Notes under the pieces: generated by a model
The model's input: the letters and a program-made list of their open reading frames with translations, nothing else
Told to the model about the DNA's origin: nothing
Databases searched by the model: none
Part shown: in pieces, positions 1 to 54,691 of the stretch
Numbering within the stretch: the first letter of the stretch is position 1
Layout: each line of letters opens with the position of its first letter
Assembly: GCA_021413905.1 (NCBI GenBank)
Contig: JAIOPO010000004.1
Location: forward strand, 1,597-65,596
DNA from: Candidatus Nomurabacteria bacterium
Lineage (GTDB): Bacteria > Patescibacteriota > Minisyncoccia > Phycocordibacterales > UBA9973
DNA length: 64,000 nt
Reading direction: 5' to 3'
Made by a program: the position numbers and the translations under genes

Positions 1-522
1 AAGTAAATTTTTACCTAGCAACACACTGTCTTGATCTGTGCTATTCAAATACGAACCGCGAATTATGAATTTTGAAATACCGGAAAACTTTTCTTCTTGT
101 ACAGGATCAATACCCAAAAGAGAACCACCAACACCGTCATTTTTTTCTCCCGGTTTTATGGTTTTACGATAGTCAGACTCCACAAAAGCACTACCAGTGT
201 ATCTTGTAGTATGATCTCTGTATCCCGGTATTGTTTTTATTATTTCTTCAACTTTTGGAGTTTGTTGTATCTCTGATCTATTTAAAAAAGGAGAAATCAC
301 AATATCACCAATAGCGTATTTTTTCTGTGCATCTTCGGAACCTTGAATAAGACCGATCAAAATACCAGACACAACTATCAAATTCAAAAAGGTCAATGTC
401 ATTACAAAAACAATCAAAGCGGTAGTCCATTTGTTAGCGTGTTTTATATCTCGCCAAGCCAAAAACCAACCAACGGATATATTTTGCGAAAAAGAATTTT
501 CTATTTTTATTTTATCCTTCAT
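1..522 (-). CDS. ABC transporter permease, FtsX/MacB-like (N-terminal part; gene runs off the window start)
   Basis: My own reverse-strand translation from the ATG at 522-520 gives MKDKIKIENSFSQNISVGWFLAWRDIKHANKWTTALIVFVMTLTFLNLIVVSGILIGLIQGSEDAQKKYAIGDI. That is an N-terminal TM helix followed by a loop, as in FtsX-like permeases. The start overlaps the stop of the upstream adaptor gene (TAATG coupling). Confidence 0.65.
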   Translation of the reverse strand, partial: MKDKIKIENSFSQNISVGWFLAWRDIKHANKWTTALIVFVMTLTFLNLIVVSGILIGLIQGSEDAQKKYAIGDIVISPFLNRSEIQQTPKVEEIIKTIPGYRDHTTRYTGSAFVESDYRKTIKPGEKNDGVGGSLLGIDPVQEEKFSGISKFIIRGSYLNSTDQDSVLLGKNLL

Positions 523-2063
523 TATTTATTTTGAATCAAAGCTATTTGATCATTCTCAGAAAGTCCAGAAACAATTTCTATCATATTATTATCTCCAATA
601 AAACCAGTCTGAACTTCTCTTTCTATGTATTTTTTACTTTTTATATTAGTTATAAAATCAACAAAATATTTTCCATCTTTTTGTATTATGCCGACATTTG
701 GTATAGCTAAAACATTATTCTTTTCTCCTGCTAAAATATTAACATTTGCATTCATGCCTGGACGAATGGTTTCATCTTTTTCATTTATTAATATTTTTAT
801 TTTATAATTAACCACTCCATTATTAGTCTCCGCAGAAGGATCTATTTGTGAAACAACACCAGTAAATGATTTATCTTTACCAAAAGCATCAAAAGTAATA
901 GAAACATTTTGACCTATTTTCAAATTTGCAATATTGGCTTCATTTATCAAAGCTTCAATGTATAAATTAGAAATATCTTGCAATGAAATAACAGCCTTTC
1001 CAACTTGAGATATTTCACCGTATTTTATATCAATTTTTGTAATAGTGCCGTCTGCTGGAGCACGAATAATAGTATCTTCATAAGCTGATTGCGCAGATTC
1101 TAAATTCCCTTCTGCTGACAAAATATCTGCATTCGCTAAATCAATATCAGATTGTCGTGCATTTGCTTTTTTTAAATTTAGTTCAGCTTGCTTTTGATCG
1201 ACTAAAGATTGCGCAGATGACAATGCTGACGTTTGAGTTTTCAATGCATTTTGATAAGCATTATAATTTGTTAAATAATTTGAAGCCTGTTTGTTTGGAA
1301 TAGAAACAACCCAGCTGTCTTGCACAGAATAATTTGTGGGAAATTGTATATATAAACCCGAATCTCCCAATGCTTGTGGAGAAGAATAACTTATTGATCC
1401 TGAAGTATTAAAAACACCTGAAGTATTAAAATAACCTCCATTACCACTTTGATATAAAGATATTTTTATATCTCCTTCTTTACCTAAAATATAAGTTCCT
1501 GATATGGTCGGAGATATTGCATTTGTAAATGAGCTGGTTGGATATGCTTGCAAATTTGAATTTAATAAATTTTGATATGCATTTGAAACTAAAACATTTT
1601 GAGCATTTTTAACATTTTCAAAGTCATTTTGAGAATTTTTCAAAGCAATCTCAGCTAAAACTATTTCTTCATTTGAAGCTCCTTGTAAAATTTTATTATA
1701 TTTTGCTTTAGCGGCGAGTAATGCTCCTTTTGCTTGTGTTAATACTGCTCCAGCTTGACCCTGATCAAGAGTCGCCAAGATTTGTCCTGTTTTTACAATA
1801 TCTCCAACATTAACTTTTACAGACTTTACAGTGCCTGTTTTATTAAAAGATAAATTTAAATCTGTTTTAGAAATAACTTGACCAGTGGCTTGTATATTTT
1901 TACTTAAATCTGAAAATTTAACTTGAGAAATTTGGATATTGTCACTCTTATCTCCTGAAAACATAAAAAAACCAACAATAGCGACAACTAAAAAACCAGC
2001 AATATACAAATTTCTTTTTTTAAATAAAAAACTTTTTATATTTTCAAGATTTATTTTATTCAT
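522..2063 (-). CDS. Efflux transporter periplasmic adaptor (HlyD/MacA family)
   Basis: The ORF track gives 522..2117. It has an N-terminal TM anchor, a lipoyl-like motif (VKSVKVNVGDIVKTGQILATLD), long coiled-coil segments and a C-terminal beta-barrel (TITKIDIKYGE). I prefer the start at Met19 (MNKINLENIK, 2063), which leaves the hairpin at about 2097-2126 intergenic. Confidence 0.75.
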   Translation of the reverse strand: MNKINLENIKSFLFKKRNLYIAGFLVVAIVGFFMFSGDKSDNIQISQVKFSDLSKNIQATGQVISKTDLNLSFNKTGTVKSVKVNVGDIVKTGQILATLDQGQAGAVLTQAKGALLAAKAKYNKILQGASNEEIVLAEIALKNSQNDFENVKNAQNVLVSNAYQNLLNSNLQAYPTSSFTNAISPTISGTYILGKEGDIKISLYQSGNGGYFNTSGVFNTSGSISYSSPQALGDSGLYIQFPTNYSVQDSWVVSIPNKQASNYLTNYNAYQNALKTQTSALSSAQSLVDQKQAELNLKKANARQSDIDLANADILSAEGNLESAQSAYEDTIIRAPADGTITKIDIKYGEISQVGKAVISLQDISNLYIEALINEANIANLKIGQNVSITFDAFGKDKSFTGVVSQIDPSAETNNGVVNYKIKILINEKDETIRPGMNANVNILAGEKNNVLAIPNVGIIQKDGKYFVDFITNIKSKKYIEREVQTGFIGDNNMIEIVSGLSENDQIALIQNK

Positions 2064-24509: not shown

Positions 24510-24620
24510 TTCTTTTACATAGTGCTCCCCTGTTTTGAGTTTATTTAATAAAATAATTTCAAAACAGGGGAAGCCGAAAACCTGTTCCAGAGTAGGCACG
24601 ATCAAAAAAAATGAACAAAA

Positions 24621-46588: not shown

Positions 46589-47458
46589 TTATTTTAAAAA
46601 AGAAAAATTAAAAGTTTTTCCGTTTGATTTCATCACTATTGTGCCTAATAAATCAGTACGAAAAACCTTTGCTTTAAACTGATTTAGAATATCCAGAGTT
46701 TCCTTGTGCGGATGTCCGTATTTATTATTTTTACCATCTGAAATCATCGCATATATAGGAGAAACAGCCTGCATAAATTCAGGTGAAGTGGAGGTATGCG
46801 AACCGTGATGCCCGACTTTTAAAATCGTCGATTTTAAAAGTCGGGCATCATTTTCCTTTAACACTATCCTCTCCGTCAATTTTGTCGCATCCCCCGTCAA
46901 CATCACCGAAGTTTCTCCGTACGACAAACGCGCAATCACCGATCCATCATTCGTCTCCCAGTTCGCAACATCTCTATCCGGAAATAAAATATCAATTACT
47001 GCTCCGCCACCAAGATTCAACCTCATTCCCTTTTTTACTAAAATGTCCGGAATATTTTGCCTTTTTATTTCTGCTTCTAAATTCTTATAAGTTTTCGAAT
47101 TATTAAATGTTCCCGGCTCAAAAACTTTTCCTACTTTATAATTTTTCAAAATATCTAAAAATCCTGCAATGTGATCTGCATCCGGATTAGTGATAACAAT
47201 AGCATCTATTTTTTTATCATATATCGGCATCACTTGAGAAAGCGGACTTAAAACTTTATGTGCTAGACCTGCATCAAACATCACCTGCACCCCAGCCGGC
47301 GATTCTATAAAAAGCCCGTCCCCTTGCCCGATATCAAGCATAGCAAAAGTCAGACCACGATGAACATTTTGTCTGTCTAAAGAAAAAATATAAATATTTA
47401 CACCTAAAAGCATCACTGCAAGAATCAACAAATAGTATTTTTTGCAATTTTCAAACAT
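46589..47458 (-). CDS. Membrane-anchored MBL-fold hydrolase (ComEC C-terminal beta-lactamase-like domain encoded as a separate gene)
   Basis: An N-terminal TM helix is followed by FAMLDIGQGDGLFIESPAG...VITNPDADHIAG...KVGHHGS. Confidence 0.8.
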   Translation of the reverse strand: MFENCKKYYLLILAVMLLGVNIYIFSLDRQNVHRGLTFAMLDIGQGDGLFIESPAGVQVMFDAGLAHKVLSPLSQVMPIYDKKIDAIVITNPDADHIAGFLDILKNYKVGKVFEPGTFNNSKTYKNLEAEIKRQNIPDILVKKGMRLNLGGGAVIDILFPDRDVANWETNDGSVIARLSYGETSVMLTGDATKLTERIVLKENDARLLKSTILKVGHHGSHTSTSPEFMQAVSPIYAMISDGKNNKYGHPHKETLDILNQFKAKVFRTDLLGTIVMKSNGKTFNFSFLK

Positions 47459-49982: not shown

Positions 49983-51758
49983 TTACATAATATCAACAAT
50001 CCTAAGCCTCAGCTCTTCACGACCGCGGAAACGAGATAAATCAAAAGTCGCCAGTAAGTTTACAGACAATCCTTCGGCTAAAGGAATTTTAAAGGAATCT
50101 AAGCCAGAGAAAAATGAAATCGCTGTGGCTTTTTTGTTATTATCGGAAAAAATAATTTCTAGATGTTCTTGTGAATTATTTTTTCCGAATTTTTTCAATT
50201 TTTCTATTTTCACATTTTCAAAAAGAAAAATAGGCTTTGGATTTTCACAACCAAATGGCGCCATTTTTTCTATTTCTTTCCAATTTTTCATATTTACGTC
50301 AGTGAGAGATAATTTTAAATCAAAAAGTGTGGGAGATTGCTTTTCTGTAGCCGAGGACTGTCTGAGCGTAGCGAGTTCCGCAGGCAAAGAAAAAATATCA
50401 CCTGCACTTTTTGCACGAATATTTACAAAAGAACTAGACAAAGCTTCCTCCAAAAAATGCACTTTTTCTGTATGCACTGTAAATCCTCCCGCGCCTTCGT
50501 GCCCGCCAAATTCCAAGAAATACTCACGTGTTTCTGTCATCAACTCAACAACAGACACTGAGCCATCTGACCGACAAGAACCTTTTATAAAATCATTCTC
50601 ATCTTTACCCCACACAAACACGGGCTTTTTATGTTCATCACAAATCTTACCCGCAACAAGACCGAGCACACCCACTTTCCATTCCGGATGCCCTATAACT
50701 ATCACTTCGTTCATTTCACGTTTCTCGAATTTTTTATTCACATCTTTCATAATACCAGCAACCATTTTTTTTCTTTCGTCATTTATTTTCGTCAAATGAT
50801 TTGCCAAAATTCCTGCCTCCGTTTCATCTTGCGTTGCCAACAATTCAAAAGCTCGGCGCGGATCATCCATACGCGATGCAGCATTAAGTCGAGGCGTCAC
50901 CATAAAACCAATATCGTCTTCAGAAATATATTTCTGATCTATGCTCATCTTTGCCAAAAGTTTTTGCAAACCCGGACGCGGAGATTTCCTAAAAACTTTC
51001 AAACCAAAATATGCAATCACTCTATTTTCTCCCAACAACGGCACCATGTCAGAAAGTGTCGCTAGCCCCGCCATATCAAGCAACCATTTCTCCCAAGAGA
51101 GAGGCGCGGGTATTGTGTTTTCTGTAGCCGAGGACTGTCTGAGCGTAGCGAGTTCCGCAGGCAAAGGAAACACAATACCCGCGCCTCCATACTTCTTCAA
51201 AAAACCTTGCACCAATTTAAAAACAACCCCAGACCCACATAACATTTTTTCCGAATATTCGTCTACTTTCGGATTCAAAATAGCATACGCTCGCGGAAGC
51301 TCTGCGTGCGGAATATGGTGATCTGTAATTATAACATCAATGCCGTACACAATAGCTTGAGCTACTTCTGCCACAGCTGTGATGCCTAAATCAATCGTGA
51401 TTAAAAGCTTCACACCGTCTGCGTCCATTTTTTTTACCATTTCCAAATTCAAACCATATCCTTCAGAATTTCTTTGCGGAATATATACTTCAAAATTTTT
51501 ATAATTTAATTTATTAAAAAAGTCATTCAATATCACCGCGCCTGGAATGCCGTCGCAATCATAATCCGCATATACCAATATTTTTTCTCCAGCTTCCATC
51601 GCTTCAAAAATCCGCACGCAAGCTTTTTCCATATCGCGCATTAAAAAAGGATCGTGCATATCGCGTTCATAATTTGGATTTAGGAAAATCTCTTTTTGCT
51701 CGGCTGTTGTAATGCCTCGTTTTTCCAATAATTCATTTAATAGGCTACTTGGTTGCAT
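49983..51758 (-). CDS. recJ: Single-stranded-DNA-specific exonuclease RecJ
   Basis: It has DHH motifs (YADYDCDG, ITIDLGI, ITDHH) and the DHHA1 motif GGHEGAGG. I prefer the start at MQPSSLLNELLEKRGI (51758). The ORF-track extension to 51908 would run across the HIT gene start. Confidence 0.9.
   Translation of the reverse strand: MQPSSLLNELLEKRGITTAEQKEIFLNPNYERDMHDPFLMRDMEKACVRIFEAMEAGEKILVYADYDCDGIPGAVILNDFFNKLNYKNFEVYIPQRNSEGYGLNLEMVKKMDADGVKLLITIDLGITAVAEVAQAIVYGIDVIITDHHIPHAELPRAYAILNPKVDEYSEKMLCGSGVVFKLVQGFLKKYGGAGIVFPLPAELATLRQSSATENTIPAPLSWEKWLLDMAGLATLSDMVPLLGENRVIAYFGLKVFRKSPRPGLQKLLAKMSIDQKYISEDDIGFMVTPRLNAASRMDDPRRAFELLATQDETEAGILANHLTKINDERKKMVAGIMKDVNKKFEKREMNEVIVIGHPEWKVGVLGLVAGKICDEHKKPVFVWGKDENDFIKGSCRSDGSVSVVELMTETREYFLEFGGHEGAGGFTVHTEKVHFLEEALSSSFVNIRAKSAGDIFSLPAELATLRQSSATEKQSPTLFDLKLSLTDVNMKNWKEIEKMAPFGCENPKPIFLFENVKIEKLKKFGKNNSQEHLEIIFSDNNKKATAISFFSGLDSFKIPLAEGLSVNLLATFDLSRFRGREELRLRIVDIM
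50321..50413 (-). repeat. In-frame GC-rich hairpin element inside recJ, copy A (93 bp)
   Basis: It shares a 49-bp core (50341-50389, ttttctgtagccgaggactgtctgagcgtagcgagttccgcaggcaaag) with copy B. The core is flanked by imperfect inverted arms whose outer 9 bp pair perfectly (caaaaagtg / cactttttg). Confidence 0.8.
51101..51187 (-). repeat. In-frame GC-rich hairpin element inside recJ, copy B (87 bp)
   Basis: It carries the same 49-bp core (51118-51166). The core is flanked by a perfect 20-bp inverted repeat: gaggcgcgggtattgtgttt (51101-20) and aaacacaatacccgcgcctc (51168-87). Confidence 0.85.
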
Positions 51759-51794: not shown

Positions 51795-52205
51795 ATGGAA
51801 GAGTGTATATTTTGTAAAATAATAAAAGGGCAAATCCCTAGCACGAAAATTTATGAGGATGATAAAACCCTCGCCTTTTTGGATATTGCGCCAGTAAACA
51901 TCGGGCACGCTTTAATAATACCTAAAGAACATTATGCAAATATATATGAAACTCCGGAAGACACTATGTCAGACATAATAAAAGTAGCTAAAAAAATATC
52001 TCTCGCTGTGAAAGAAGCAGTAAAAGCAGAAGGAGTAAATATTACAATGAACAATAACCACGCTGCCGGGCAAGTAATATTCCATTCACACATTCACGTC
52101 ATCCCCCGTTTCTCAAACGATGGCTTTGAACTCTGGCACGGTAAAAGAGCATACGAAGATGACGAAATGAAATCTGTTGCTGAAAATATTACTTCAAAGC
52201 TTTAA
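51795..52205 (+). CDS. HIT-family nucleotide hydrolase/transferase
   Basis: It has CIFCKII and the histidine triad HSHIHVIP. Confidence 0.9.
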   Translation: MEECIFCKIIKGQIPSTKIYEDDKTLAFLDIAPVNIGHALIIPKEHYANIYETPEDTMSDIIKVAKKISLAVKEAVKAEGVNITMNNNHAAGQVIFHSHIHVIPRFSNDGFELWHGKRAYEDDEMKSVAENITSKL

Positions 52206-53232
52206 TTAAATTTTTATCATTAAAAAATTTAGAAAGTTTATACCCCCTACAATGAGACAAAATTCCTAAATAAGAAAACTTTGACTCTTTGAATAAATTT
52301 TGTTTCACTTTTCGTAAAATTCTTTTTTTAGTGGAAGTTCGCAAAACTTTATAATGTGTAAGAACTACATAACCAAGAAAATCCACTCCTTGCGATACTT
52401 TTCTAATTTCAACTTTTTTGGGATGTAATTTTAATTTAAGTTTCTCTTCTAAAAATTCGGAAATTTTTGGTAAAAGTAATTCAAGAAAATATTTATCTTT
52501 TGAAACGCACACGAAATCGTCACAATATCTTGCATAATATTTTACTTTTAAAACATGTTTCATAAACTGATCAAAAACATTCATATAAACATTTGCAAAA
52601 AGTTGACTTGTCACATTACCAAGAGGAAGACCTTTGCCTTCTAATTTTTCAAAACTTTTTATAATATTTTCTAAAAGCCATTTGGTTTCCAAGCACTCAA
52701 TTTTTTCAAAAAGAATTTTCTTTAAAATTTCGTGATCTATTGAATCAAAAAATTTAGAAATATCACACTTTAATACCCAAGCATTATTTTTATAATTTTT
52801 TGTTTCTTTTCTTAAAAAACTTTCAAGACGCTCAACTCCCGCGTGAGTGCCTTTATTAAATCGGCAAGCATAAGAATCATAAATAAAAGATGGATCATAA
52901 ATTTTATAAAGTTGGCGAAAAACAGCTTGATGCACTACCCTGTCTCGAACCTGTGCTTTGTGTATATGTCTTATTTTGGGGTCGCAAACATAAAAAGGCA
53001 CATATGGCTCATTTATATATGTTTTTCTTCGTAGAGAAAAATGAATATCCAAGATATTTTTTTCTAAATTAAATTCAAATTTCTGTATATCAGTTTTTTT
53101 ATTTTTTCCACGACGAAACTCTCGCCACGCAGACAAAAGATTGGAAGTGGAAATAATATGATAGAATAAATCACTATGATGACCCCCCCACTTACTTCCA
53201 ATAAAATTATCGAGCTCCCTGTTATTCTCCAT
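52189..53232 (-). CDS. Diversity-generating retroelement reverse transcriptase
   Basis: RT motifs present include VRDRVVHQAV, SYACRFNKGTHAG and KCDISKFFDSIDH. It also has the DGR-diagnostic LPLGNVTSQLFANVY ([ILV]GxxxSQ) and YARYCDDFV (YxDD). A TR/VR pair lies adjacent. Confidence 0.9.
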   Translation of the reverse strand: MENNRELDNFIGSKWGGHHSDLFYHIISTSNLLSAWREFRRGKNKKTDIQKFEFNLEKNILDIHFSLRRKTYINEPYVPFYVCDPKIRHIHKAQVRDRVVHQAVFRQLYKIYDPSFIYDSYACRFNKGTHAGVERLESFLRKETKNYKNNAWVLKCDISKFFDSIDHEILKKILFEKIECLETKWLLENIIKSFEKLEGKGLPLGNVTSQLFANVYMNVFDQFMKHVLKVKYYARYCDDFVCVSKDKYFLELLLPKISEFLEEKLKLKLHPKKVEIRKVSQGVDFLGYVVLTHYKVLRTSTKKRILRKVKQNLFKESKFSYLGILSHCRGYKLSKFFNDKNLIKALK

Positions 53233-53562
53233 GTAAAGAGATTATATAAAATAATATATCAATTGGGAATAAAAATGCCGAAACAAAATAAATTGGGCAT
53301 ACATAAAGTGTTGGAAGAAAAAACATTACTAATACTTACTACATTAATTGATTCAGCACTTAGAAGTAGGCAAGACAAAATACAAACTCTAAATCAAGCT
53401 CGTAGAGATATTGAAGTCTTGAAACATCTTATTCGCCTAGAATATGAATTAAATATAATACAAGAGAAATCTTATATAAATTTATCAGCGATGCTTGAAA
53501 ATATCTCTATGATGACAACCGGTTGGATAAAGTCTCTCGGAACACAAAAGCCCCTCTATTGA
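53176..53562 (+). CDS. avd: Avd-like accessory variability determinant (four-helix-bundle protein)
   Basis: LYKIIYQLGIKMPKQNKLGIHKVLEEKTLLILTTLIDSA...LKHLIRLEYELNII...ISMMTTGWIKSL follows the four-helix-bundle/Avd pattern, and helix 1 needs the upstream residues. An extended -10 (TGATAGAAT, 53159-67) lies 8 nt before the ATG at 53176. The alternative start is 53275. The long form overlaps the RT 5' end by 57 nt on the opposite strand. Confidence 0.72.
   Translation: MMTPPLTSNKIIELPVILHVKRLYKIIYQLGIKMPKQNKLGIHKVLEEKTLLILTTLIDSALRSRQDKIQTLNQARRDIEVLKHLIRLEYELNIIQEKSYINLSAMLENISMMTTGWIKSLGTQKPLY
53241..53246 (-). promoter_or_regulatory. -10 box (TATAAT) 8 nt upstream of the RT start codon
   Basis: The minus strand reads ttTATAATctctttacATG. 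There is no SD, so the arrangement looks leaderless. Confidence 0.4.
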
Positions 53563-53865
53563 GGAGCTTTATGAGAAACTTCTGACGGAGACCGTTGTCG
53601 GAATTACGGTTGTCGCGATTGTCGTTGCTGATGTTGAACTGACCATTGTCGTTGCGGTTCATGTTCATCGCGTTACCGTCTGAATCGAGGGCTCTTTCTG
53701 TGAGTGTCCACCAATATCACCACATATCTTTTTCAAAATATGTTGAATTTTCCGGCACTAAAGCCGTCTCTGTTTGGAATCTAAATTCCCTAGACTCTCG
53801 CAGGCAGTTTCTATTGTTTGGCAAACTGTCATCACATTTTTTAAACGGATCAGCTTAACAGCCGA
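53545..53865 (-). ncRNA. Predicted DGR TR-containing RNA (promoter-proximal spacer, TR, 3' hairpin)
   Basis: The upstream bound is the extended -10 at 53870-53878. The downstream bound is the hairpin GCTCCTC-aata-GAGGGGC (53567-53550) followed by TTTT on the minus strand. The transcript limits are inferred, not observed. Confidence 0.45.
53583..53693 (-). repeat. DGR template repeat (TR), 111 bp
   Basis: It aligns colinearly with 53958-54068 at an offset of 375. In the VR reading frame it contains 11 AAY codons (8 AAC, 3 AAT, hand count). Confidence 0.88.
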
Positions 53866-53869
53866 GTTA

Positions 53870-53878
53870 ATTATAACA
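53870..53878 (-). promoter_or_regulatory. Extended -10 promoter (TGTTATAAT) for the TR RNA
   Basis: On the minus strand, ttTGtTATAATtaac follows the target-gene terminator directly. Confidence 0.45.
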
Positions 53879-53885
53879 AAATTGT

Positions 53886-53926
53886 AAAAAAAAGTTCCCC
53901 TTGAATTAAAAAATCCAAAGGGAACA
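53886..53926 (-). terminator. Rho-independent terminator of the DGR target gene
   Basis: Minus-strand hairpin GTTCCCTTTGG-attttttaatt-CAAGGGGAAC followed by TTTTTTTT. It may also serve as the hairpin that DGR homing often needs just 3' of the VR. Confidence 0.7.
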
Positions 53927-53944
53927 AGATAATAGTCAAGAGGT

Positions 53945-54691
53945 TTAGAAACCTACTTGACGGAGACCGTGGTCGGAAAGACGGCCGCCGCGATGGCCGC
54001 TGCCGATGTAGAACTGACCATAGTCGCGGCGGATCATGAACATCGCGTGCCCGCCTGAATCGAGGGCTGCAAAACGTGTGAGTCCTTTGACATCATACAT
54101 TTTACTAGTCTCAGTCCGATGACGAAAAGCGGCGATGATGCCTTCTTTCGGCACCATAAACTTGGTGCCGGCTTCGATACCGTCATCATAGCTTTTGCCT
54201 AGCATGTCGGGCTCGTCTCCGCCGACGTGGCACATGGGATAGTCGCCTTCGGGGCGCGCTTGCTGTTCGCGAATTGCATCGGTGATGCTGTCGTAATATT
54301 TCCATACAGCATCCTTTCCGAACTTTTTCGCATAGGCTTCAAGTGCCTGATCCTCGGTGATGTCGGAAAAAATAACCTCAAGGCGAGACATTTTTTCAGT
54401 TTTCACCGGCAAAGAAAGTTTCGTCCAGTCAACCTGACGGTTGAAGAATTTTTTGTAAAATATTTCTATCTTACGTTTTTCTTCAGTCCAGTGGTCAACT
54501 TTTACACCGAGAACTTCTTCGCAGAATTTCTCGGTCAGTTCTTCAAGCTCTTTTTTGTCACTCAAGACAAAGTGTTGCGCTTGGTCAAAACTGAAACCTC
54601 CATCGCCCAGCACACGAATAATGGTGCCGGCAATTTTAAAACCAATTGCAGACAACTGCCCCGTGGTTGCGGGTTTTTGCTGATTTGTCAT
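53945..54691 (-). CDS. DGR target (variable) protein, 248 aa, C-terminal VR
   Basis: It contains the VR in its last roughly 41 codons (...ALDSGGHAMFMIRRDYGQFYIGSGHRGGRLSDHGLRQVGF*). A strong SD (AAAGGAGGAGTCTT-ATG) precedes the start. Its GC content and codon usage differ sharply from those of its neighbours. Confidence 0.88.
   Translation of the reverse strand: MTNQQKPATTGQLSAIGFKIAGTIIRVLGDGGFSFDQAQHFVLSDKKELEELTEKFCEEVLGVKVDHWTEEKRKIEIFYKKFFNRQVDWTKLSLPVKTEKMSRLEVIFSDITEDQALEAYAKKFGKDAVWKYYDSITDAIREQQARPEGDYPMCHVGGDEPDMLGKSYDDGIEAGTKFMVPKEGIIAAFRHRTETSKMYDVKGLTRFAALDSGGHAMFMIRRDYGQFYIGSGHRGGRLSDHGLRQVGF
53958..54068 (-). repeat. DGR variable repeat (VR), 111 bp
   Basis: It has 20 hand-counted mismatches to the TR. 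Nineteen are at TR adenines (coding/minus strand) and one is at a TR thymine. It ends 10 nt before the stop codon. Confidence 0.88.

Follow-up and report, generated by a model that had tools for sequence, protein, structure and literature searches.

Two in-frame hairpin insertions in recJ of a Candidatus Nomurabacteria bacterium share their apical loop with a palindrome family present in at least seven bacterial phyla

Two GC-rich hairpin units, set in the same reading frame and built on an identical 49-nt core, lie within recJ of a Candidatus Nomurabacteria bacterium. We analysed them within a 64,000-nucleotide stretch of contig JAIOPO010000004.1 (GenBank assembly GCA_021413905.1, positions 1,597 to 65,596), referred to here as the window. 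Both segments are insertions in inter-domain linkers of RecJ. The 21 nt at their centre, CTGTYTGAGCGNAGCGAGTTY, recur at the apex of long hairpins, whose stems covary and are unrelated to one another, in Bacteroidota, Pseudomonadota, Nitrospirota, Spirochaetota, Bacillota, Fusobacteriota and Patescibacteria; they belong to a previously uncatalogued apical hairpin family that spans at least seven bacterial phyla. The explanation we favour for the recJ units, to which we assign a probability of about 0.6, is that they are non-autonomous, selfish palindromic DNA elements tolerated in the RecJ linkers and akin to Rickettsia palindromic elements (RPEs), repetitive extragenic palindromic (REP) elements and miniature inverted-repeat transposable elements, or MITEs.

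The host gene (49983..51758, minus strand) encodes a protein of 591 amino acids from an ATG at 51758. It matches TIGR00644 (recJ) at 471.7 bits, contains DHH, DHHA1 and RecJ_OB domains, and shares 100% identity with a Candidatus Nomurabacteria RecJ at NCBI. An initial annotation of this DNA, made from the letters alone, had described a 49-bp core that occurs twice in recJ in the same orientation and frame. An exact-match scan bears this out: the 49-mer TTTTCTGTAGCCGAGGACTGTCTGAGCGTAGCGAGTTCCGCAGGCAAAG lies on the plus strand at 50341-50389 (copy A) and 51118-51166 (copy B), the spacing between the two cores is 777 bp, and both are read in one frame as LPAELATLRQSSATE, at RecJ residues 458-472 and 199-213, respectively. 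No third copy was found in the window at up to three mismatches, and dinucleotide shuffles of the window gave 0 matches. The conserved loop motif lies antisense to recJ, and the strand given for the units is that of the motif. Copy B occupies 51101..51187 (plus strand), an 87-bp unit of 29 codons covering RecJ residues 191-221 or thereabouts. Within its core (51118..51166, plus strand) is the conserved 21-nt apical loop CTGTCTGAGCGTAGCGAGTTC at 51135..51155 (plus strand), and the centre of this loop, GCGTAGC at 51143-51149, is an instance of the GCGNAGC mini-hairpin motif. The arms of copy B are perfect over 20 bp, as had been annotated, with GAGGCGCGGGTATTGTGTTT at 51101-51120 fully complementary to 51168-51187. 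Copy A (50321..50413, plus strand) is a unit of 93 bp and 31 codons at about residues 451-478, with its core at 50341..50389, its 21-nt loop at 50358..50378 (both plus strand) and GCGTAGC at 50366-50372. Its arms are imperfect, again in line with the earlier description: over 37 nt they reach 70% complementarity, and the outer 9 bp pair perfectly.

Both units fold much better than shuffled sequences, with z-scores of -8.4/-9.0 for copy B and -3.2/-4.2 for copy A, and in both the plus strand is the more stable one. The fold energy of copy B is -54.7 kcal/mol (z -9.0), and that of copy A is -34.4 kcal/mol on the plus strand compared with -26.9 kcal/mol on the minus strand. The elements are also richer in GC than their host gene, a contrast that the initial annotation had pointed out: the core is 55% GC, unit B 57.5% and unit A 46%, against 37.7% for the rest of recJ and 32.8% for the whole window. 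At the recJ copies, promoter-like and terminator signals did not rise above chance level.

That the two segments are insertions, as originally proposed, is clear from an alignment of 120 RecJ orthologues at about 70% identity, since most of them have neither segment. Some 97 of the 120 lack both; the first site usually reads KKYGEYFKIKDGAEKW and the second HKVKRDKxExEVNYDVKSDL. Domain matches put the inserts in the linkers named at the outset, copy B between DHH (aa 59-191) and DHHA1 (aa 352-441) and copy A between DHHA1 and the start of the OB domain at aa 480. In an AlphaFold2 model made with 60 orthologues (mean predicted local distance difference test score, pLDDT, of 83; predicted template modelling score of 0.82), which is confident overall, the two inserts (residues 194-217 and 454-476) are the only long segments with pLDDT below 50. 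Because the low-scoring stretches coincide with the inserts in this model, it is most likely that RecJ tolerates them as disordered loops.

Insertion at the first site is recurrent and patchy. This site is lengthened in 23 of the 120 orthologues, and 22 of these 23 (about 20% of all orthologues) hold a related element; 19 carriers read xAELAxLxQSS, and in the other three the same DNA is turned round and reads EDCLSxASSxxKK. The second-site copy, present in none of the 119 other orthologues, is unique to the source genome. Carriers do not form a clade: the carrier P0012 is 90.8% identical to the non-carrier P0069 and only about 85% identical to other carriers, and the host codons displaced at the first site differ from carrier to carrier. 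Seven orthologous copies were compared at the DNA level. They keep the inner ~45 nt (TTTTGYAGCCGAGGA-loop-CGCAGGCAAAA), while their outer arms are all different yet nearly perfectly paired, the common part amounting to a weak RGGGGWTT signature. A model in which host-derived arms grow outwards, giving a constant net insertion length, found no support, as the net gains vary from 17 to 29 codons and reach 36 in the nested copy of P0099.

The orthologues also give a view of how the element may change once in place. The left arms of P0012 and P0028 (ISFATCNF and ISFASRNF) are homologous, the changes in their arms are compensated and their cores have opposite orientation, which argues that the asymmetric core has flipped in place between its arms. 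The arms and peptide tail of the second-site copy (TEKQSPTL) resemble those of the first-site copy of P0084 (SEKQIPTP), and the two recJ cores agree at all 49 positions, which may reflect recent copying or gene conversion in the genome. A nested or partly duplicated element was seen in P0099 (…IFLPAEKETVGNKVFLPAELAS…), and P0003 and P0004, identical outside the insert, differ by a 4-codon indel at its edge; together these cases indicate ongoing rearrangement at the element. The second linker of other orthologues contains unrelated repeated peptides. One of these, NTPSALGTSPYVGGGQVGVNF in the recJ of P0067 (L172, around aa 436), is encoded by a different GC-rich hairpin of -37 kcal/mol, and further examples read QDLKGAQGLAL and SDNxxxCPTSK. 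This suggests that further families of in-frame hairpin elements exist in Nomurabacteria, and it makes the RecJ linkers appear to be general sites where hairpin elements land repeatedly, the elements coming from two or more unrelated families.

The apical loop reaches far beyond recJ. Among 185,579 species-representative genomes (one genome per species), exact copies of the central 22-mer are present at 44 loci, at the tips of hairpins. The hosts include Parabacteroides, Bacteroides and Zhouia in the Bacteroidota; Nitrospirales, with several copies per chromosome; Beta- and Gammaproteobacteria; Spirochaetota; Lachnospiraceae (Bacillota); and, within the Patescibacteria, Saccharibacteria and Kaiserbacteria. 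A slightly degenerate pattern, CTGTYTGAGCGWAGCGAGTTY, is found at no fewer than 120 metagenome loci. Ralstonia megaplasmids have up to 6 matching places each (1-6 among the matches listed) and a plasmid of Ilyobacter (Fusobacteriota) has 12. Each collection was scanned with one pattern, so that the family is at least this large and its taxonomic range at least this wide. The element was absent from all 5,426 complete Escherichia coli genomes scanned, and the exact motif had no match in viral contigs; annotated phages gave short matches at chance level only, plus one unverified faecal contig with a true copy. RB43-like T4-type phages (L167, locus 601-617) have a 17-nt stretch in common, GAGCGAAGCGAGTTCCG, in an intergenic region rich in GCGAAGC; the hairpin context there is different, and this is probably not a member of the family. 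A literature search with the loop sequence returned unrelated primers or nothing, and searches on in-frame palindromes of the candidate phyla radiation (CPR), conserved-loop hairpins and bacterial triplex RNAs found nothing relevant, although a description in literature beyond that searched is possible.

Throughout the family it is the loop that is fixed and the stem that varies. In the element carried by recJ the apical module CGAGGA-CTGTYTGAGCGNAGCGAGTTC-CGCAG is strongly conserved. In the Nomurabacteria subfamily an inner stem is kept as well (TTTTGYAGCC / GGCAAAA), and the outer arms have copy-specific sequence with complementarity preserved. A median of 38 pairs encloses the motif, which is always at the tip, and stem sequences are unrelated between copies. 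Covariation was scored in 41 distinct copies for the seven pairs that adjoin the loop. Pairing is seen in 88% of stem cells (45% in shuffles), and the covariation score of 1.10 compares with 0.26 in shuffles and at most 0.34 in slid controls; none of 500 shuffles reached the observed score, and all four Watson-Crick pair types are seen at each of the seven pairs.

Two subtypes can be distinguished, one with a plain stem (132 of 186 copies) and one with a conserved non-Watson-Crick internal loop, CGAGGA...CGCAG (54 of 186, the recJ copies among them). In copies that were not picked by the search pattern, variation of the loop is limited to positions 5, 12 and 21 and, rarely, 11. Position 12 is the N of GCGNAGC, and A, T, C and G all occur there. 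GCG-N-AGC is known as an extraordinarily stable DNA mini-hairpin motif in which N is unpaired (PMC13037366), and free variation at N is as expected for the unpaired base of a GNA triloop. The GA/GA on either side of this centre could form tandem sheared pairs. The element matched no family of Rfam 15 at gathering or permissive thresholds, in the window and at 30 or more further loci, where weak generic microRNA-hairpin matches fell far below threshold.

Most members of the family are intergenic, with only a handful of about 175 copies in genuine long open reading frames (ORFs). At low-GC loci they are placed at the 3′ ends of genes and avoid divergent promoter regions (4 of 48 copies lie between divergent genes), and their orientation relative to tandem genes is unbiased (15 vs 16). 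Many copies are arranged in outward-facing inverted doublets, 200-1200 bp apart, in the manner of REPINs. In one locus (L050, 3778-4967), two outward-facing modules flank a single Abi_alpha / PDC-S47 candidate defence gene in a cassette-like arrangement. A link to tRNA genes is not supported, one being nearby at only one of 60 loci. A c-di-GMP-I riboswitch (L071, 618-711) lies about 250 nt upstream of a family member on a gut-metagenome contig, which may be a coincidence. The ORFs that adjoin the Nitrospirales copies encode RlmN or are spurious, and a regular-expression screen for HUH...Y proteins in the window and all loci, which is a weak test, picked out a single HUH/Y1 ORF, RAYT- or IS200-like (L073, about 494-1081, minus strand), 2.8 kb from the copy.

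Many copies outside the CPR have two further conserved hairpins downstream, first H2, of pyrimidine/purine make-up, and then H3, which is small and GC; neither accompanies the recJ copies. H2 lies 40-200 nt downstream of the loop, for example at L163, L066, L085 and L136, and one instance reads CCTTTCTTTTGC tt ACTTTTCTTTGG cgaa GCAAAGAAAAGT. It is built from two pyrimidine runs and one purine run, for which a triple helix or an alternative pairing is possible; a comparison of mirror with direct repeats gave 16 vs 20, with 29 ties. A GCGNAGC motif at the tip of H2 was considered and rejected, as its 24 occurrences (5.8 expected) had no clean hairpin-tip position.

Outside recJ, in-frame copies were seen in the RecG helicase of a Kaiserbacteria genome (in sense orientation), in a P-type ATPase, at the C-terminus of a PurQ-like protein and, in one Nomurabacteria genome, at the 3′ end of ComEC. 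A direct reading of the sequence shows five of the conserved loop's six frames to be open, and a single complementary pair of frames serves every coding copy. Of 11 coding copies, 10 have the better fold on the motif strand, regardless of how the host gene is oriented, a bias that is explained in part by the constant core. A profile search returned only 5 significant matches among 1.84 billion proteins, and a host-protein census by peptide word-index search found nothing.

How do these units compare with known palindromic elements? The initial annotation had likened them to the RPEs. RPE-1 to RPE-10 are palindromic elements of Rickettsia of about 100-150 bp (Ogata et al., 2000, as summarised in PMC10969869). 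There are several likenesses: both are short palindromic repeats found in frame in unrelated housekeeping genes, both add a peptide at positions compatible with the fold, neither encodes a transposase, and both live in hosts with reduced genomes. The in-frame copies in RecG and a P-type ATPase, together with the patchy insertion at the first recJ site, amount to RPE-like behaviour, and in this respect the earlier comparison stands. It does not extend to membership of the RPE families. The recJ units are shorter (87-93 bp, against about 100-150 bp for RPEs), their host phylum is Patescibacteria, and it is the loop and not the whole element that is conserved, the same loop recurring in many phyla and mostly between genes. 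The insert peptides match no NCBIfam or Pfam family at E-values up to 10, in libraries whose coverage of RPE models is not confirmed. Because the peptides match no such family and the host is a CPR bacterium, the recJ element is not a member of the Rickettsia RPE families.

There are also parallels with REPs and REPINs, imperfect palindromes rich in GC that RAYT transposases mobilise and that are believed to work as hairpins of single-stranded DNA (Nunvar, 2010, PMC2817692; Bertels and Rainey, 2011, PMC3116915). Like them, the family occurs as singlets and inverted doublets and at gene 3′ ends, avoiding promoter regions, and both doublets and multi-copy genomes are found in other phyla. Several enterobacterial REP loops contain AGCGNAGCG, which is the same mini-hairpin, and both window copies have GTAG (GTAGCC...) just 5′ of the inner stem. 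In most orthologous copies, however, GCAG replaces GTAG, and other phyla have unrelated bases there. REPs keep a stem and a GT(A/G)G head within each lineage, whereas in the present family the loop stays constant across phyla and the stem is variable; at the loci screened, a RAYT linked to the element was not found; and REPs are extragenic, whereas the two window copies are intragenic singlets. The bacterial MITEs known from genes, including ERIC, Correia/NEMIS and Nezha (reviewed in PMC10969869), resemble the recJ units in being small, non-autonomous, built on inverted repeats and occasionally fused in frame with host ORFs (PMC10969869). They differ in that the terminal arms are the least conserved part here, and no related autonomous insertion sequence was found. 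With a head that is not conserved, no linked RAYT or transposase at the loci screened, no target-site duplication found and arms that are the least conserved part, the recJ units do not fit the usual definitions of REP/RAYT elements or of MITEs.

Two further comparisons concern the loop. TwoAYGGAY RNAs (RF01731; bioRxiv 10.64898/2026.09.22.753630) are likewise hairpins with a conserved terminal-loop sequence, and show extreme copy-number variation and an enrichment of divergent doublets that suggests expansion in the manner of a mobile element (bioRxiv 10.64898/2026.09.22.753630). Their loop sequence and architecture are different, the present element lacks an Rfam match, and TwoAYGGAY RNAs are not reported inside coding sequence. 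The GCGNAGC mini-hairpin DNAs share the GCG-N-AGC centre and occur at single-stranded DNA replication and priming signals (PMC13037366), but they are a structural motif and not a family of elements.

Placement at gene 3′ ends, random orientation, doublets, patchy taxonomic occurrence and the mini-hairpin loop all point to a hairpin that acts at the level of DNA and on one strand. We favour a scheme in which the element landed in a recJ linker and persists there as it is in frame, free of stop codons and would amount to no more than a disordered surface loop of the protein. The hairpin would form in single-stranded DNA on the motif strand and would be mobilised in trans by an enzyme encoded elsewhere, for example one of the HUH/Y1 type or another recogniser that reads the loop. 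Arm complementarity may be kept by hairpin-templated correction or by selection for pairing, the loop may flip in place through recombination or template switching between the arms, and the identical cores in recJ may stem from recent copying or gene conversion within the genome. The reverse transcriptase encoded near recJ (see below) was rejected as the mobiliser, as it is part of a classical retroelement with its own template and variable repeats and no reverse transcriptase is found at the other loci.

Several observations weigh against this explanation. All-against-all clustering of ORFs found no protein shared within 3 kb of about 170 copies, and no transposase or RAYT among them, the single HUH/Y1-like ORF at L073 aside. 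No target-site duplication is definable when filled and empty recJ sites are compared. Only two copies are present in the 64-kb window, both in one gene. G-U/G-T pairs favour the motif strand (442 vs 233), a statistical bias that fits single-stranded DNA and RNA equally well. Lastly, known REP, MITE and RPE families are lineage-specific with conserved arms, whereas here 18 loop positions are invariant across phyla, and an invariant loop with varying arms is more typical of a functional RNA or a protein-binding site.

A broader proposal covers the family as a whole. The apical 21-32-nt module, (CGAGGA-)CTGTYTGAGCGNAGCGAGTTY(-CGCAG), may be a hairpin element that spreads horizontally, from CPR bacteria to Bacteroidota and Pseudomonadota, with a loop that is read by portable or universal machinery, tolerates any stem and can be carried in frame either way round. 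We offer this tentatively and think it less likely than not. If true, it would represent a new kind of mobile element, or of structured RNA or single-stranded DNA, that is specified by its loop alone.

The strongest alternative to a selfish element is a functional structured module, an RNA or single-stranded DNA signal on the motif strand such as a priming or nicking site, in which the 18-20 invariant loop nucleotides would bind a conserved factor of the cell or of a mobile element. The recJ copies would then be cases in which the module has spread or been exapted, and an RNA made from them would be antisense to the recJ mRNA. We take this seriously mainly because the loop is invariant across phyla, which is unusual for selfish repeats, and the near-absence of loop variation holds even outside the copies selected by pattern. 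The strong stem covariation, the G-U bias and better folding on the motif strand, the internal loop (GAGGA/CGCAG) and the H2 and H3 hairpins downstream of non-CPR copies are all in keeping with such a module, as are the divergent doublets, which recall TwoAYGGAY RNAs, and the occurrence of GCGNAGC mini-hairpins at single-stranded DNA priming sites (PMC13037366). For the family, then, the structured RNA or DNA signal that the initial annotation had raised as its own alternative stays alive, because the apical 21-32 nt are widespread, mostly intergenic and found in many phyla. On the other hand, orientation to neighbouring genes is random and gene context inconsistent; Rfam offers no match even at permissive thresholds; promoter-like matches near the recJ copies are at chance level; and the distribution is very patchy, as the small number of loci with the exact 22-mer attests. 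The recJ copies lack H2 and H3, and insertion into coding sequence in both orientations fits poorly with a strand-specific function in cis. On balance we regard a functional module as possible but less probable than a selfish element.

It is unlikely that the recJ units constitute an intragenic inverton, in which the arms would let the core flip and RecJ would thereby be recoded in a programmed, phase-variable way, its linker peptide alternating between LPAELAxLxQSS and EDCLSxASSAGK. The occurrence of both orientations at the same site among different orthologues, both of them open in frame, is in keeping with such a switch; the homologous arms and opposite cores of P0012 and P0028 and the five open frames of the loop agree with it too. 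However, the peptides lie in disordered linkers without predicted structure, inversion between inverted repeats is the expected passive by-product of any palindrome, and the family is mostly intergenic. An assembly or library artefact, in which a collapsed repeat, chimera or hairpin adapter yields identical cores 777 bp apart on a metagenome-derived contig, is excluded for practical purposes, because related elements occupy the same site in independently assembled RecJ genes (NCBI, JGI and ENA) and the motif occurs in cultured strains, including complete records for Ilyobacter polytropus DSM 2926 and the plasmid of Ralstonia GMI1000, and, moreover, both units are in frame with unique recJ sequence on either side. 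To our knowledge the motif is also unlike common sequencing adapters.

In-frame selfish palindromes are best known from Rickettsia. If the selfish-element reading is right, the same phenomenon now appears in housekeeping genes (RecJ and RecG) of CPR/Patescibacteria, which bears on how reduced genomes gain protein insertions. The recJ copies have also exposed a family with freely varying stems and a loop that keeps about 18 nucleotides invariant in seven or more phyla. The factor that recognises this loop, once found, could reveal a new mechanism of mobilisation or a new structured RNA or single-stranded DNA signal, and gut Bacteroidota and Ralstonia have enough members of the family for experimental testing.

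Three other features of the window were noted. A complete diversity-generating retroelement adjoins recJ at 52189-54691 on the minus strand. It comprises a reverse transcriptase (52189..53232, minus strand; domain match to RVT_1), a template repeat (53583-53693, minus strand) and a variable repeat (53958-54068, minus strand) at the 3′ end of an ORF at 53945..54691, and the differences from template to variable repeat include 30 A-to-N changes. The retroelement is itself an insertion, because orthologous loci hold PGK and TIM at that position. A perfect 22-bp palindrome with a 1-nt spacer, TGATGCCCGACTTTTAAAATCG / CGATTTTAAAAGTCGGGCATCA, lies at 46806-46850 and has no relation to the recJ element. 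The only Rfam match in the window is a DUF805b RNA (RF02914) at 24564-24598 on the plus strand, which scores 41.5 bits and is above the gathering score.

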